Shown here: piece after piece, positions 1,127 through 63,534 of the stretch
Layout: every line of letters starts with the position of its first letter
How positions within the stretch are numbered: the first letter of the stretch is position 1
NCBI RefSeq assembly: GCF_003334355.1
Contig: NZ_QOWP01000008.1
Length of the DNA stretch: 64,000 nt
Direction: 5' to 3' (one strand)
From: Escherichia coli
GTDB taxonomy: Bacteria > Pseudomonadota > Gammaproteobacteria > Enterobacterales > Enterobacteriaceae
Notes under the pieces: generated by a model
The model's database searches: none
Told to the model about the DNA's origin: nothing
Seen by the model: the letters and a program-made list of their open reading frames with translations, nothing else
Translations under genes and position numbers: made by a program

Positions 1127-2554
1127 ATGAGCGATAAAAAGAAGCGCAGTATGGCGGGTTTGCCGTGGATCGCGGCGATGGCCTTCTTCATGCAGGCACT
1201 TGATGCCACTATTCTGAATACCGCCTTACCCGCAATCGCTCATAGCCTTAATCGTTCTCCTCTCGCGATGCAATCAGCCATCATCAGTTATACGCTGACG
1301 GTGGCGATGCTTATTCCGGTAAGCGGATGGCTAGCCGATCGCTTCGGTACGCGTCGCATTTTTACCCTTGCCGTGAGTCTGTTCACATTGGGTTCTCTGG
1401 CCTGCGCACTTTCTAATTCGCTACCACAGCTGGTTGTCTTCCGGGTTATTCAGGGGATAGGCGGCGCAATGATGATGCCTGTTGCTCGGCTGGCCTTACT
1501 GCGCGCTTATCCTCGTAATGAACTTCTTCCAGTATTGAATTTTGTCGCCATGCCGGGTCTGGTGGGGCCAATTTTAGGCCCCGTTCTTGGCGGCGTGCTG
1601 GTCACCTGGGCAACCTGGCACTGGATATTTTTAATCAATATCCCCATAGGTATTGCAGGCCTTCTTTACGCGCGCAAACATATGCCCAATTTCACCACCG
1701 CACGACGCAGATTCGATATCACTGGCTTTTTGTTGTTTGGCCTCAGCCTTGTTCTCTTCTCAAGCGGAATAGAGCTATTCGGGGAAAAGATTGTCGCCAG
1801 CTGGATTGCCTTGACGGTAATTGTCACCAGCATCGGGTTACTGCTTCTCTATATTCTCCATGCACGACGCACGCCAAACCCATTAATTTCATTAGATTTA
1901 TTTAAAACCCGCACTTTCTCGATCGGTATCGTAGGCAATATTGCAACCCGTCTGGGGACCGGCTGTGTACCGTTCCTTATGCCATTGATGTTACAGGTAG
2001 GATTTGGTTATCAGGCGTTTATTGCCGGCTGTATGATGGCGCCGACAGCGTTAGGTTCCATTATTGCAAAATCGATGGTTACCCAAGTCTTACGTCGTCT
2101 GGGCTATCGCCATACATTAGTGGGGATCACGGTGATTATTGGGCTAATGATCGCTCAGTTCTCTTTGCAATCACCGGCAATGGCGATATGGATGCTGATC
2201 TTGCCGTTGTTTATATTAGGGATGGCTATGTCGACGCAGTTTACCGCGATGAATACCATCACACTTGCCGATCTGACCGATGACAACGCCAGCAGCGGTA
2301 ACAGTGTTCTGGCGGTCACGCAGCAACTGTCTATCAGTTTAGGCGTTGCTGTAAGTGCGGCCGTCCTTCGCGTTTATGAAGGAATGGAAGGCACAACGAC
2401 TGTCGAACAATTCCACTATACGTTTATCACAATGGGCATTATTACTGTTGCTTCAGCAGCAATGTTCATGCTTCTGAAAACAACCGATGGTAATAATTTG
2501 ATCAAAAGACAGCGTAAATCTAAGCCGAACCGCGTTCCATCAGAATCGGAGTAA
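1127..2554 (+). CDS. hsrA: MFS transporter HsrA (YieO)
   Basis: 475 aa, multiple hydrophobic TM segments, MFS signature region; recognised as HsrA; position between yieP and rbsR. Confidence 0.9.
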
Positions 2555-3512
2555 GTTGTAATCGTTGTTGCTGAAGAGTTGGCTGGGTTATCCGATGGAT
2601 GAGTACATCAATCGCCAGCTCCCCCAGTTCATCTTTCGGTTGGTGGATAGTGGTTAATGGTGGCGTCATAAAGCTTGCCAGTTCGATATCGTCATAGCCA
2701 ATCACCGCGATATCCTGCGGAACCTGTAACTCTGCCTGATATAACGCCTGGTAAACGCCAACAGCCATAGCGTCATTTCCGGTAAAGACGGCCTGAGGAC
2801 GCAGCGGATGTGATAGCAGTTGGCGCATAGCGTCAAACCCGCCGTTAAATTCAAAATCACCAGTGACTTCATAGCCATCAGGAATGTTGAGACCCGCACG
2901 TTTCATCGCCGCCCGATAACCTTCCAACCGCAGGCGCGCCGGAGTTTTATCCAGCGGGCCGGTAATACAGGCGATACGGGTATGACCTTTATCGATCAGA
3001 TATTGCGTTGCTAAGTCTCCGCCCAGCAACGAGTTATCCTGAATAAGATCGCTGTCGCCATCGAACGGAGCCCAGTCCATCATCACGGTAGGCACTGTCG
3101 GATAACGTTGCATGATTTCACGCGAAGGCTGATGCGTTTCGGTGCACAGTAACAGCAAGCCATCAACGCGTTTTTGCATCAGCGTTTCCAGATTGCGATT
3201 CATCCGCTGTTCATCGCCTTCGGTATTGCAAAGGACAAGACTATAACCGCGTTCGAAGCAGCTGCGTTCAACGCCACGCACCAGTTCTGAATAGAAAGGA
3301 TTGGTACTGGCAGTGATCAACATGCCAATGGTATGTGTTTGATTGAGTTTGAGGCTACGCGCCAGAGCTGATGGCGCGTAATTGAGTTCTTTAATCGCCG
3401 CTTCAACTTTGGCGGTAATCGCTTCACTGACGAAGCGATCTTTATTGATAACGTGAGAAACTGTTGAGGTAGAAACGCCCGCCAGGCGGGCAACATCTTT
3501 CATTGTAGCCAA
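2520..3512 (-). CDS. rbsR: Ribose operon repressor RbsR (LacI family)
   Basis: 330 aa; N-terminal LacI-type HTH ([20 protein letters not shown]); ORF-track start is a TTG 3 nt after the rbsK stop, with an in-frame ATG 3 codons in as alternative. Confidence 0.9.
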
Positions 3513-3515
3513 GCG

Positions 3516-4445
3516 TCACCTCTGCCTGTCTAAAAATGCGTCGATCTCTTCACGCCACGGTACGGAAGGTTGTGCGCCTTTACGTGTTACGGCAATCGCA
3601 GCGGCAGCATGGGCAAAACGAATCGCCTCTGGCAATGGTTTTTCTTCCAGCAATGCCGTGATTAACGCACCGTTAAAGGTATCTCCGGCAGCAATGGTAT
3701 CGACAGCCTGCACCCGGAATCCAGGAACGCGCTGACCTTCACCATTCACGCTAGCCCATACACCACGACTTCCTAAAGTAATCAGTACAGTACGGATACC
3801 TTTTTCATGCAGTACCTGCGCCGCCTTCGCTGCATCTTCATCATTTTCAACACGAATACCGGTGAGCTTTTCTGCTTCCGTTTCGTTTGGCGTAATAATG
3901 TCCACCAGCGCCAGCAGTTCGTCAGGAAGTTCGCGAGCCGGAGCCGGGTTAAGCGCAACGATAGTCTTATTTTGATGGGCGATTTTCGCCGCTGCCATCA
4001 CACTTTCGAGTGGTGATTCCAGCTGCATTAATAATGCTGATGCGTTGGCAATACGCTCACGTTGCGCTTCCACCAGCGCCGGGGAAAGGGCAGCATTAGC
4101 GCCGGCATGAATACCAATGACATTCTCACCTTCGCCATTAACAAAAATCAGCGCCACACCTGTTGATTCGCCTTTGATCACGCTGACGGGAGAAATATCG
4201 ATGTTATCAGTGGCGAGCTGCTGGCGAACGCTCTCGCCAATGCTGTCATCGCCAGTGCAGGCAATAAACGCGATATTCGCACCGCTACGCCCAGCAGCCA
4301 CCGCCTGATTCGCGCCTTTGCCGCCAAATGCAACCTGATAGTGGTTACCGGTTACGGTTTCGCCTGGGGAAGGAAAAGATTGAAGATTAAGAATGTGGTC
4401 AGCATTAATGCTGCCAAGAACAACGAGGCTGCCTGCGTTTTGCAT
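3516..4445 (-). CDS. rbsK: Ribokinase RbsK
   Basis: ORF-track 318 aa trimmed to start MQNAGSLVVLGSINAD (309 aa); PfkB-family motifs (GGKGANQA, DTIAAGD). Confidence 0.9.
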   Translation of the reverse strand: MQNAGSLVVLGSINADHILNLQSFPSPGETVTGNHYQVAFGGKGANQAVAAGRSGANIAFIACTGDDSIGESVRQQLATDNIDISPVSVIKGESTGVALIFVNGEGENVIGIHAGANAALSPALVEAQRERIANASALLMQLESPLESVMAAAKIAHQNKTIVALNPAPARELPDELLALVDIITPNETEAEKLTGIRVENDEDAAKAAQVLHEKGIRTVLITLGSRGVWASVNGEGQRVPGFRVQAVDTIAAGDTFNGALITALLEEKPLPEAIRFAHAAAAIAVTRKGAQPSVPWREEIDAFLDRQR

Positions 4446-26238: not shown

Positions 26239-26536
26239 ACGCGTGATCCGTCCTGAAGAGCGTTCACATAGATCCTGCTGATATAAAACACCCCTGTTTT
26301 CCCGTTTATTCATTGATCGAAATAAGAGCAAAAACATCCACCTGACGCTTAAATGAAGGTACTGCCTTAATTTTCTGCAGACAAAAGGCGTGACGATGGT
26401 CGAAAATGGCACTTTCGTCAGCGGGGATAATCCGTTATTGAACAATTTATCCTCTGTCCATTTCACGATGAAAAAAATGTAGTTTTTTCAAGGTGAAGCG
26501 GTTTAAATTCGTTCTCAAATTACAGTCAGGACGCGT

Positions 26537-50973: not shown

Positions 50974-52389
50974 TTAAACTTCTTTCAGTTTTGCGGTGAA
51001 GTGACGCAATACTTTTGGTTCGTAGGTAAAGGTTAATCCTTTAATATTCGCCGCGTTCTCTTTCACATGTTTAAAGGCTTCAATAATGAAGTCCATATGT
51101 GTTTGAGTATATGTTGCGCGCGGAATGGTTAAACGCAGCAGTTCAGCCGGGCATGGCAGTTGTTTACCGGTTTTCGGATCGCGGCCTAACAGGAAAGAGC
51201 CAATTTCTACCGCACGGATACCGGCGACTTTATACAGCTCGCACGCCAGCGCCTGTGCCGGGAACTGGTCTGCCGGGATATGCGGCAGCAGTTTACCGGC
51301 ATCAACGAATGCCGCGTGACCGCCCGCCTGCTGGCAGACAACGCCAATCTCTTCCAGACCATCGACCAGATACTGTACCTGCGCGATACGATAAGCCAGC
51401 CAGTCGAGATTCATGCCGTCATACAGACCTACCGCCAGACGCTCCATCGCGCCGCCTTCCAGGCCGCCATATGTCGGGAAGCCTTCCTGCACCACGCAAA
51501 GGGTTCTGCACTCGGTGTACACATCAAAGAAGCTGTCGTCTTTCATGCACAGCAAGCCGCCCATCGGCACCATCGCATCTTTCTTGGCGGACATCGCCAG
51601 CATATCGGCATATTTGTAGGTTTCGCGGGTGATCTGCTCGATGGTCCAGTCTTTGTATTCTGCTTCACGCTGCTTGATGAAATAGGCGTTTTCAGCAAAG
51701 CGTGCGGAGTCCATTACCACCGGAATATCGTATTTCTTCGCGATGCTGTACATCGCTTTTAAGTTTGCCAGTGAAACCGGCTGACCACCTGCAGAGTTAC
51801 TGGTGATGGTTGCAACGATATACGGCACGTTATTCGGGCCAACTTCTTCAATACCGCGTTCTAATCCTTCGAGGTCAAAGTTGCCTTTAAAGTCGTAACG
51901 CACGCCCGTATCGAAGGCTTCTTTGATATAGACGTTACGCACGGTACAGCCGTTAATCTGGCTATGGCCCTGCGTGGTATCAAAGAAATAGTTAGAGAAT
52001 GCCACCATTTTGCTGCGATCCAGGCCTTTTTCCTGCTCGCGTTTTTTAATCAGTACCGGAATATAGATTTGCTCTGCGCCACGGCCCTGGTGAGTCGGAA
52101 TAGTGTATTGATAACCAAAGATATTTTTCACTGACTCGGCTAACGCATAGTAGCTGCGGCTGCCGCTGTAGGCTTCGTCGCCGCGCATCATCGCGGCCTG
52201 CATACTCTGCGTCACCGCCCCGGTGCCGCTGTCGGTCAGTAAATCGATAAACACATCTTCGCTATCCAGCAGGAACGGGTTCATACCGGATTTAATAATT
52301 GCTTCTTCACGATAAGCGCGAGTAGTACGTTTTACTGGCTCAATAACACGAATGCGGAACGGTTCAGGGAGATGTTTAAAGTTTTCCAT
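50974..52389 (-). CDS. tnaA: Tryptophanase TnaA
   Basis: ORF-track 476 aa trimmed to [18 protein letters not shown] (471 aa); PLP-dependent beta-eliminating lyase. Confidence 0.95.
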
Positions 52390-52609
52390 TACATAATCCT
52401 TCATTTATTTTAATTACAGTGATCCCTGTGAATATTACATCTGCAATATCCATTAATTCGCCATGTATATATACAAGCACCATCATTTACTAAAATAAGT
52501 AAATAAACGAGAGATGGCCTTTGCAAAAGGCAAAATTAAGATATAGCAAACTAATCGTTCACATTGAATCTAATCGGTTTGGCTCTGGTGATGGCTACAG
52601 AAGGGTAAA

Positions 52610-52684
52610 TTAAGGGCGGTGATCGACAATCTTATTGTCGATATTGAACCATTTTGAGGTCACACATATATGTAAGATATTCAT
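52610..52684 (-). CDS. tnaC: tna operon leader peptide TnaC (24 aa, MNILHICVTSKWFNIDNKIVDHRP)
   Basis: Reverse complement of ~52610-52684 encodes exactly the 24-aa TnaC peptide with the critical Trp12 and C-terminal Pro24 followed by a stop; not in the ORF track because under 60 aa. Confidence 0.9.
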   Translation of the reverse strand: MNILHICVTSKWFNIDNKIVDHRP

Positions 52685-52759
52685 AATGCACTTATCCTCG
52701 AAAGACACGAGGCTACAGTATAATACTCAAGAATTTTGTCTATTCTAAAATTGTTTAAA

Positions 52760-52775
52760 TGTGAATCGAATCACA
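52760..52775. promoter_or_regulatory. CRP binding site of the tna promoter
   Basis: tgtgaatcgaatcaca, a near-perfect TGTGA-N6-TCACA palindrome upstream of tnaC. Confidence 0.75.
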
Positions 52776-52926
52776 ATCGTTCGGGGAGCAATATTAAATG
52801 CTTTTTTTTAAGATTATAAATTACGTAAGAATTTTAATGTTTAAAAAAAGGGTTGAGGAATAATAGGAGTGCTAACAATGAAGCGAAGCCGCATCTGACA
52901 GTCAGAATACGGCTTCGTAAGCGCGG

Positions 52927-54291
52927 TTACTTACCAATACAGAAGCTGGAGAAAATCCGCCCCAGCAGGTCGTCTGAAGTAAATTCCCCGGTGATTTCGC
53001 TTAAGTTCTGCTGTGCCAGACGCAACTCTTCCGCCAGCAGTTCACCTGCCCAGGCTCCCAACAGTTGCGCTTTGCCCTGTTGTAGATGTTCCGCTGCCTG
53101 TTCCAGCGCCTGTAGGTGGCGACGACGCGCCAGGAAGCCGCCTTCCATGTTGGTGTCAAAGCCCATGCTCTGTTTGAGATGGTTACGCAGCACCTCCACG
53201 CCTTCACCTGTCCTTGCCGAGAGACGAATTAACGCGTGACCGTTCACTTCACTCATTCCCAGCGTTTCGCCGGTGATATCGGCTTTATTGCGCACCACGG
53301 TGATCGGCAGTTTCGCTGGCAGACGGGCGATAAATTCCGGCCAGATCTCTGCCGGATCCACGGCGTCTGTTGTGGTGCCATCGACCATAAACAGCACGCG
53401 GTCGGCCTGTTCAATTTCCTGCCACGCGCGCTCGATACCAATACGTTCCACTTCGTCACTGGCTTCACGTAGCCCAGCGGTATCGATGATATGCAGCGGC
53501 ATTCCGTCAATGTGGATATGCTCACGCAGCACGTCACGTGTGGTTCCGGCGATATCAGTTACGATTGCTGCTTCACGGCCCGCCAGCGCGTTTAACAGGC
53601 TCGATTTACCGGCGTTAGGACGTCCGGCAATCACCACCTTCATCCCTTCGCGCAACAAACTACCCTGACGTGCTTCAGCACGCACTGCATCGAGATCGGC
53701 AATCACGTCATTAAGCTGGGCTTCAATTTTGCCGTCGGAGAGGAAATCGATCTCTTCATCAGGGAAATCAATTGCCGCTTCGACGTAAATGCGCAAGTGG
53801 GTGAGGGCTTCTACCAGATGATTAACCCGTGCGGAGAATGCGCCTTGCAGCGAGTTAAGTGCCGAACGGGCCGCCTGTTCCGAACTGGCGTCGATAAGAT
53901 CGGCAATCGCCTCGGCCTGGGCTAAGTCAAGTTTATCGTTAAGAAACGCGCGTTCGGAAAACTCACCAGGGCGAGCAATCCGCAGGCCGGGAATGGTCAG
54001 AATGCGTTTTAACAGCAGGTCGAGGATCACCGGACCGCCATGACCTTGCAGTTCCAGCACATCTTCGCCGGTGAACGAGTTCGGGCCAGGGAACCATAGC
54101 GCAATCCCCTGATCGAGCACGCTGCCGTCGGCGTCTTTAAACGGAAGATAATCGGCGTAGCGCGGCTTAGGCAGTTTACCCAGCACGGTTTCGGCAACTT
54201 CACGGGCTTTGAAGCCGGAGATGCGCAGGATGCCAACGCCGCCACGTCCCGGAGGCGTGGCCTGGGCTACGATAGTGTCATTATCGCTCAT
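52927..54291 (-). CDS. mnmE: tRNA modification GTPase MnmE (TrmE)
   Basis: 454 aa; G-domain motifs ([13 protein letters not shown]) and C-terminal CIGK. Confidence 0.95.
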
Positions 54292-57389: not shown

Positions 57390-58793
57390 GTGTCACTTTC
57401 GCTTTGGCAGCAGTGTCTTGCCCGATTGCAGGATGAGTTACCAGCCACAGAATTCAGTATGTGGATACGCCCATTGCAGGCGGAACTGAGCGATAACACG
57501 CTGGCCCTGTACGCGCCAAACCGTTTTGTCCTCGATTGGGTACGGGACAAGTACCTTAATAATATCAATGGACTGCTAACCAGTTTCTGCGGAGCGGATG
57601 CCCCACAGCTACGTTTTGAAGTCGGCACCAAACCGGTGACGCAAACGCCACAAGCGGCAGTGACGAGCAACGTCGCGGCCCCTGCACAGGTGGCGCAAAC
57701 GCAGCCGCAACGTGCTGCGCCTTCTACGCGCTCAGGTTGGGATAACGTCCCGGCCCCGGCAGAACCGACCTATCGTTCTAACGTAAACGTCAAACACACG
57801 TTTGATAACTTCGTTGAAGGTAAATCTAACCAACTGGCGCGCGCGGCGGCTCGCCAGGTGGCGGATAACCCTGGCGGTGCCTATAACCCGTTGTTCCTTT
57901 ATGGCGGCACGGGTCTGGGTAAAACTCACCTGCTGCATGCGGTGGGTAACGGCATTATGGCGCGCAAGCCGAATGCCAAAGTGGTTTATATGCACTCCGA
58001 GCGCTTTGTTCAGGACATGGTTAAAGCCCTGCAAAACAACGCGATCGAAGAGTTTAAACGCTACTACCGTTCCGTAGATGCACTGCTGATCGACGATATT
58101 CAGTTTTTTGCTAATAAAGAACGATCTCAGGAAGAGTTTTTCCACACCTTCAACGCCCTGCTGGAAGGTAATCAACAGATCATTCTCACCTCGGATCGCT
58201 ATCCGAAAGAGATCAACGGCGTTGAGGATCGTTTGAAATCCCGCTTCGGTTGGGGACTGACTGTGGCGATCGAACCGCCAGAGCTGGAAACCCGTGTGGC
58301 GATCCTGATGAAAAAGGCCGACGAAAACGACATTCGTTTGCCGGGCGAAGTGGCGTTCTTTATCGCCAAGCGTCTACGATCTAACGTACGTGAGCTGGAA
58401 GGGGCGCTGAACCGCGTCATTGCCAATGCCAACTTTACTGGACGGGCGATCACCATCGACTTCGTGCGTGAGGCGCTGCGCGACTTGCTGGCATTGCAGG
58501 AAAAACTGGTCACCATCGACAATATTCAGAAGACGGTGGCGGAGTACTACAAGATCAAAGTCGCGGATCTCCTTTCCAAGCGTCGATCCCGCTCGGTGGC
58601 GCGTCCGCGCCAGATGGCGATGGCGCTGGCGAAAGAGCTGACTAACCACAGTCTGCCGGAGATTGGCGATGCGTTTGGTGGCCGTGACCACACGACGGTG
58701 CTTCATGCCTGCCGTAAGATCGAGCAGTTGCGTGAAGAGAGCCACGATATCAAAGAAGATTTTTCAAATTTAATCAGAACATTGTCATCGTAA
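57390..58793 (+). CDS. dnaA: Chromosomal replication initiator DnaA
   Basis: ORF-track 471 aa trimmed to the GTG start at [14 protein letters not shown] (467 aa); AAA+ Walker [12 protein letters not shown]; C-terminal DNA-binding domain. Confidence 0.95.
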
Positions 58794-63435: not shown

Positions 63436-63534
63436 GCCTGATGCGCTACGCTTATCAGGCCTACGAAAATCTTGCAATGTATTGAATTTTCATGATTTTG
63501 TAGGCCGGATAAGGCGTTCACGCCGCATCCGGCA
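63436..63534. repeat. Two REP elements (BIME-like) downstream of gyrB
   Basis: gcctgatgcgctacgcttatcaggcctac and gtaggccggataaggcgttcacgccgcatccggca, followed by a hairpin plus T-run terminator (gggcggagatcatctccgccctttttatttc, ~63551-63581). Confidence 0.8.

Follow-up and report, generated by a model that had tools for sequence, protein, structure and literature searches.

An intact tna attenuation module with a UAA-terminated tnaC leader gene in an Escherichia coli chromosomal segment

Does the DNA upstream of tnaA in the Escherichia coli stretch analysed here (the window, 64 kb in total) carry the tna attenuation module, and is this module intact when compared to that of the K-12 strain? 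An earlier note on the same DNA had proposed a TnaC leader gene, a long spacer and a CRP site at this locus. The reference system is the tnaCAB leader of K-12 (tnaC, b3707), which comprises a CRP-dependent promoter, the TnaC arrest peptide, rut and boxA, and a Rho-dependent attenuator; in the K-12 model, the spacer between tnaC and tnaA carries the Rho-dependent termination and pause sites. According to the published model, CRP-cAMP activates transcription initiation and ribosomes translate tnaC; if tryptophan is low, the ribosome departs at the stop codon, the rut site just downstream is exposed and Rho terminates transcription at pauses before tnaA, and if tryptophan is high, L-Trp is bound in the exit tunnel, which also holds the nascent peptide (PMC8429421, PMC8450073, PMC12360218, PMC3299997). 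With a probability of roughly 0.95, we consider the locus to be this known module, extending from the CRP site to tnaB. The tna attenuator is already known and is annotated in identical genomes, and its presence here is not new biology. The features of the locus are listed in Table 1.

Table 1. Features of the tna locus in the window, with coordinates, strand and basis of the assignment.
Feature	Coordinates	Strand	Basis and remarks
CRP (cAMP receptor protein) binding core, TGTGA-TTCGAT-TCACA	52760..52775	-	motif; invariant in aligned alleles
sigma-70-type promoter candidate, TTTAGA (52749-52744), 18 nt, TATTAT (52725-52720)	52720..52749	-	consensus scan
Shine-Dalgarno GAGGA for tnaC	52695..52699	-	direct reading; 10 nt before ATG
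tnaC leader peptide gene	52610..52684	-	translation; DNA identical to RefSeq-annotated tnaC
tnaC stop codon TAA	52612-52610	-	directly after Pro24
boxA-like sequence CGCCCTTAA	52610..52618	-	overlaps tnaC codons 23-24 and stop; K-12 counterpart CGCCCTTGA
C-rich, G-poor rut-like tract (putative Rho loading site)	52575..52626	-	composition scan
tnaC-tnaA spacer, 220 nt	52390..52609	-	same length as K-12; 67% A+T
best predicted Spot 42 pairing site AGCCAAACCGAUUA	52571..52584	-	local duplex scan, Spot 42 nt 50-64
Shine-Dalgarno AAGGA for tnaA	52401-52397	-	reading
tnaA (tryptophanase), 471 aa	50974..52389	-	ORF; ATG at 52389, MENFKH...
tnaB (low-affinity tryptophan permease), 415 aa	49636..50883	-	ORF; annotated in identical genome

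Translation of the reverse complement of the proposed leader gene (ATG AAT ATC ... CGC CCT TAA) gave 24 codons followed by a stop codon, and the product is exactly MNILHICVTSKWFNIDNKIVDHRP, as the earlier note had claimed; the distance to tnaA, given there as about 220 nt, was measured to be exactly 220 nt. The residues Trp12, Asp16, Ile19 and Pro24, which are reported to be essential (PMC10941005), are all present. Substitutions at Trp12 or Pro24 or a frameshift had been named as signs of a non-functional attenuator; both residues are intact and the reading frame is uninterrupted. In the program-made list of open reading frames the same frame appears as a 32-aa ORF with a GTG start at 52708, but the accepted tnaC start is the ATG at 52684, with the GAGGA Shine-Dalgarno sequence 10 nt upstream. 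It was also rightly pointed out that a gene of 24 codons escapes an ORF search with a 60-aa cut-off. The possibility that the short ORF is an untranslated chance open frame is practically nil and is already refuted by cross-species conservation: many other ORFs of 20 to 40 aa overlap the region on both strands, but all 24 residues match TnaC, the Shine-Dalgarno sequence lies at the right distance, and the core KWFNID..IV..P followed by a stop codon precedes tnaA in more than 30 species.

The last two codons and the stop codon of tnaC overlap a boxA-like sequence. A role of boxA in tna termination is mentioned in a passage of PMC8429421, which cites Konan & Yanofsky 2000, and the gammaproteobacterial boxA consensus is GYTCTTTAANA (PMC5725501). 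We considered whether the TAA stop codon brings the element nearer to this consensus and ruled this out, since in a hand alignment the alleles of the window and of K-12 alike match about 6 of the 10 specified positions.

Upstream of tnaC, both half-sites of the CRP core TGTGATTCGATTCACA are perfect. The earlier note had spoken of a near-perfect palindrome in front of the leader gene; the site is indeed there, and the wording needs correction only insofar as the departures from the 22-bp consensus lie solely in the flanks and in the central 6 bp. The motif TGTGA-N6-TCACA occurs once in the 64-kb window when both strands are scanned, and by our own estimate about 0.06 occurrences are expected by chance. 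The core is unchanged in six of six aligned E. coli genomes, one of which has unrelated DNA just upstream. At loci of this last type (L083, E. coli RIVM_C039227) the unrelated sequence starts just upstream of the CRP core (alignment A1, columns 1-160), and thus the CRP site marks the edge of a conserved regulatory block. Catabolite control of tna transcription initiation has been described (PMC3299997, PMC8429421).

Between the CRP site and tnaC we found a candidate promoter of the sigma-70 type, the -10 hexamer of which is overlapped by a TATACT at 52722-52717 (minus strand). The promoter scan yielded two matches versus 2.2 expected, which is the chance level, and the candidate was accepted only for lying between the CRP site and tnaC, not for its score. 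Its -10 region (GTGTAATAATG in K-12) belongs to the most variable stretches between E. coli alleles. Taking the length of the K-12 tna leader to be 319 nt, as we assume, transcription would start near 52708 (+/- 3). The CRP core would then be located at -57.5 to -61.5, a value that is set by the start assumed.

The untranslated spacer was scanned for the C-rich, G-poor composition that is typical for rut sequences and that the earlier note had suggested to look for between 52390 and 52609. Such a tract exists, but it is confined to 52626-52575 and does not extend throughout the spacer. With a length of about 40 to 50 nt, it begins in the last five codons of tnaC, straddles the stop codon and ends approximately 35 to 40 nt into the spacer; the distal spacer (about 180 nt) is AT-rich, with G above C. 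The 40-nt segment from 52624 to 52585 contains 15 C and 5 G, a bias reached by only 0.7% of the 40-nt segments on the same strand of the window (top 0.7-1.4% as the overall range). The maximum of C minus G in the leader is 12, counted from 52626, and the same value is attained by 1.2% of leader shuffles. Most of the tract is unpaired according to the predicted fold. Furthermore, the 80 nt starting with codon 20 contain 14 YC dimers, and 8 of these fall within about the first 30 nt. This initial stretch is roughly what would be covered by a ribosome that has stalled on the stop codon, which would fit the model of a shielded Rho loading site.

The composition of this tract was also compared across species. 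For this, species-representative genomes were scanned for the core W-F-N-I-D-x2-I-x4-P, and 32 loci with a downstream TnaA homologue were kept; the sample is thus limited to leaders matching this pattern. In all 32, C exceeds G in the first 40 nt past the stop codon (means of 11.1 C and 5.1 G), while in the rest of the spacer C and G are about equal (0.186 vs 0.195). The spacer sequence cannot be aligned between genera, and what is kept is the composition of a stretch that always lies at the same place with respect to the stop codon. This is the pattern predicted for a Rho loading site which is shielded by the terminating ribosome.

The promoter and terminator scan gave no terminator-like hit in the spacer, both of its hits being inside the 3' end of mnmE, and this fits Rho-dependent rather than intrinsic termination. 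When the region 52000-53200 was searched with the Rfam covariance models, no match was obtained at E<=1, and nothing indicated that Rfam has a model for the tna leader at all; since the leader is peptide-based, the missing match says little. The whole leader folds with a z-score of -2.08, and among 100 shuffles one reaches the stability of the native sequence. This z-score is driven by a long imperfect hairpin predicted in the distal half of the spacer (52390-52520, minus strand).

Two further ligands of the spacer have been described. Ribosomal protein L4 binds the tna spacer according to a passage in PMC7858274, which cites Singh et al. 2020, and the sRNA Spot 42 is reported to pair with the tnaC-tnaA intergenic region (PMC5748587). 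The best local duplex with Spot 42 has a predicted energy of -19.4 kcal/mol, compared to -16.2 +/- 2.2 kcal/mol for shuffled spacers, and the full-length duplex between Spot 42 and the spacer was no better than with shuffled sequences. The predicted site is therefore plausible but not significant on its own. It has the same sequence in K-12, lies within an invariant block and partly coincides with the distal end of the rut-like tract.

Downstream of tnaC and the spacer, tnaA and tnaB are intact. The TnaA protein is 100% identical to that of K-12, with 20 nucleotide differences which are all synonymous, and TnaB differs from its K-12 counterpart in 2 of 415 residues. An in-frame ATG at 52402-52404 (minus strand), five codons before the accepted tnaA start, leads to a 476-aa ORF in the program-made list; the start at 52389 is favoured because of the AAGGA sequence upstream of it (Table 1). 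Many complete E. coli chromosomes match the 451 nt from 52380 to 52830 with 100% identity, and their RefSeq annotation at this place reads 'tnaC: tryptophanase leader peptide' (WP_001364348.1) and 'tnaA: tryptophanase', and a chance match is thus excluded. At least 80% of this stretch is carried by 5,394 of 5,426 genomes, always on the chromosome, and the identical allele is present in more than 1,600 genomes; in 21 of the 5,426 a leader match is absent altogether. The gene order in E. coli strain E2865 is yidC-mnmE-tnaC-tnaA-tnaB-mdtL. Moreover, E. coli strain PSS-12 matches the 24 kb from 40000 to 64000, which contain dnaA and gyrB, at 100.0% identity. Judged by its sequence, the window is an unremarkable part of an E. 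coli chromosome from the vicinity of the dnaA region.

Some observations on the surroundings of the locus and on its variants in other genomes are added here. An inverted repeat with arms of 8 bp (CGAAGCCG, 18 nt, CGGCTTCG) is located at 52884-52917 on the minus strand, just past the stop codon of mnmE (52929-52927); it lacks a clear U-tract and may be a terminator or a stabiliser hairpin for mnmE. The two terminator candidates found by the consensus scan in the mnmE 3' end are weaker than this repeat. In E. coli RIVM_C039227 (L083, positions 1526-3694) a 2.2-kb gene for a type III effector of the ShET2/EspL2 family lies between mnmE and the tna promoter, an arrangement present in some E. coli genomes (matches H22-H24, 88% coverage). 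In E. coli strain 300081 (L084, positions 2246-3069) the tna promoter and tnaC, together with the larger part of the spacer, are replaced by an IS1A element; of the query, only 69 nt upstream of and into tnaA are left, and this strain has a naturally leaderless tnaA. A 3.1-kb contig labelled 'MAG: Collinsella sp.' (L041, JAIJJM010000386.1) contains the leader allele of the window and a 100% identical TnaA; this contig almost certainly comes from E. coli and was binned wrongly. Elsewhere in the window, three Rfam matches were above the gathering score, all on the minus strand: the sRNA STnc410 at 26296-26453 (187.7 bits), AsdA, an antisense RNA of the dnaA mRNA, at 57900-57980 (101.9 bits), and the sRNA ES036/CssrF at 63457-63499 (44.8 bits).

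The locus shares with K-12 the TnaC peptide, the spacer length of 220 nt, the CRP core, a 47-nt core past the stop codon (52605-52559), the TnaA protein and the gene order mnmE-tnaC-tnaA-tnaB-mdtL. On the other hand, the 537 nt of promoter region, tnaC and spacer differ from K-12 by 29 substitutions (5.4%) and by no indel. Compared to MG1655, the differences amount to 13 of 242 nt in the promoter region, 4 of 75 in tnaC and 12 of 220 in the spacer, which is about 5.4% each. They include three synonymous changes in tnaC and the replacement of its TGA stop codon by TAA, a G to A exchange four nt past the stop codon, a -10 region reading TATTATACT here and GTAATAAT in K-12, and a cluster of three substitutions at 52558-52552. 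Among six sampled E. coli alleles the CRP core with its surroundings, the TnaC amino acids and the region 52605-52559 are invariant, while the distal spacer and the -10 region vary. The leader alleles of E. coli look mosaic in sequence, strain E50 combining the promoter haplotype of the window with the K-12 stop codon.

The flanking genes diverge from MG1655 by 1.2% (mnmE), 1.4% (tnaA) and 1.3% (tnaB), and the higher divergence of the leader raises the question whether it is a decayed, non-functional relic, so that tnaA would be constitutive or unexpressed. Nothing more specific points in this direction, and we consider it very improbable. The codon changes in tnaC are all synonymous and the fourth change swaps a stop for a stop, the 537 nt are free of indels, and neither the CRP core nor the rut core varies. 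Given that the 1.2-1.4% in the coding genes are mostly synonymous, a divergence of 5.4% would be approximately the neutral level, and this allele is found unchanged in more than 1,600 genomes. For the same reasons, neutral-level divergence together with invariant functional blocks, relaxed or diversifying selection on the leader was rejected.

Thus, every sequence element named in the earlier note is present, and the interpretation of the locus as tna attenuator is supported. By analogy with the published K-12 work on CRP, ribosome stalling and Rho, the module would operate as follows. The transcript would start about 25 nt upstream of tnaC, and a ribosome would translate the 24 codons. When free tryptophan is low, the peptide would be set free at the stop codon, and the departing ribosome would expose the C-rich, G-poor tract that reaches from the last tnaC codons to about 35-40 nt into the spacer. 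Rho would load on this tract, and termination would follow at pause sites of the 220-nt spacer, before tnaA is reached. When tryptophan is high, its binding in the exit tunnel beside Trp12 and Asp16 of the nascent peptide would stall the ribosome, which would hide the first part of the Rho loading site and let transcription proceed into tnaA and tnaB. Nothing in the sequence contradicts this canonical reading. One caveat concerns the stop codon: since UAA is readable by RF1, induction could be weaker than in K-12.

The UAA stop codon had passed unremarked in the earlier note, the K-12 model having UGA. Beside K-12, four other sampled E. coli alleles end with TGA. The prevalence of the two contexts in complete E. 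coli genomes was determined with two 69-nt queries centred on the stop codon. The context of the window (TAA with A four nt later) gave an exact match in 1,721 of 5,390 genomes (approximately 32%), and the K-12 context in 3,124 of 5,396, the remainder carrying further single-nucleotide differences. Based on these matches, the UAA allele is a common natural variant in complete E. coli genomes. Among the 32 tnaC-tnaA loci of the species-level sample, 21 have TAA as the stop codon, 6 have TGA and 5 have TAG; if only the 28 loci with Pro as the last residue are considered, the numbers are 20 (TAA), 5 (TAG) and 3 (TGA). Within the genus Escherichia, E. albertii has TGA, and E. whittamii and the divergent 'E. 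coli E69' lineage have TAA. The loci behind this stop-codon polymorphism include L009, L013, L034 and L070.

UAA is read by RF1 and RF2, UGA by RF2 only. It is therefore conceivable that the attenuator is canonical but has a shifted set-point, UAA allowing RF1 to release TnaC even when tryptophan is bound. Such a shift would be a refinement of the canonical explanation and not a replacement, and it predicts that UAA strains need more tryptophan, or reach lower induced levels of tnaA and indole, than UGA strains. In 1999, Konan and Yanofsky reportedly found that with UAA or UAG in place of UGA the expression, basal as well as induced, fell to roughly one half, but that inducibility was kept. 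Structural and biochemical work on K-12 ascribes the stalling to the inhibition of RF2 at UGA (PMC8450073, PMC12407103). TnaC blocks RF2 more than RF1 according to a passage in PMC12407103 that summarises Emmanuel et al. 2019, and TnaC release 'is efficiently catalysed by RF1' (Su et al., PMC8450073). However, UAA is the commonest natural stop codon at the species-level loci, also where Pro is terminal, and it is found in about one third of complete E. coli genomes, a prevalence that is clearly compatible with a maintained and presumably regulated operon. RF2, too, terminates at UAA. In addition, the RF2 allele of K-12 is atypical, and results obtained in K-12 may not transfer to other strains. 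Taken together, we regard a shifted set-point as possible but less likely than not. We would expect induction to be retained in the allele of the window, with a basal and an induced level that may both be lower.

Related leaders are found in Citrobacter, Kluyvera, Leclercia, Buttiauxella, Pantoea, Serratia and Morganella, which share the W-F-N-I-D-x2-I-x4-P core. As in E. coli, the stop codon follows directly after Pro in most of them, and a C-rich, G-poor stretch lies past it, but they differ in the N-terminal halves of the peptides, in the spacer sequence and in the stop codons. At loci of the Enterobacteriaceae type, the spacer to tnaA has a length of approximately 220 to 275 nt, while tnaC of Morganella has one extra residue past Pro and a shorter spacer of about 125 to 130 nt. 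The tnaC of Proteus vulgaris, located upstream of tnaA, likewise encodes a tryptophan-responsive arrest peptide. A passage in PMC3082878, citing Cruz-Vera et al. 2009, gives two extra codons past the conserved Pro, because of which the arrest occurs in elongation and not in termination; the leader of the window, with its stop codon after Pro24, is of the E. coli type. The same logic of a ligand-dependent termination arrest that shields a Rho loading site is followed by the ornithine-sensing arrest peptide speFL, which acts from an upstream ORF and controls the Rho-dependent attenuation of speF (PMC12360218, PMC8429421). Unlike TnaC, it is an unrelated peptide which senses another ligand and inhibits RF1, and it is not a homologue.

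In summary, a textbook regulatory module is confirmed to be present and intact at this locus. The mechanistic and structural work on TnaC is framed on RF2 at UGA, yet UAA prevails across the genera sampled and is carried by a third of the E. coli genomes. In the literature searched, we found neither a paper discussing the natural UAA/UGA polymorphism of tnaC nor an experiment on the UAA allele. Since tryptophan-bound TnaC is reported to block RF2 far better than RF1, it is tempting to speculate, tentatively and with more doubt than about the shifted set-point as such, that nature tunes the attenuator through the stop codon of tnaC and that the UAA and UGA allele classes may differ heritably in tryptophan threshold and indole output. 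A stop-codon effect, if true, would also be relevant to tnaC-based tryptophan biosensors. Indole is a signal affecting biofilm formation, virulence and gut ecology, and should the tryptophan dose-response indeed depend on the identity of the stop codon, strain differences in indole production would have a simple heritable determinant.
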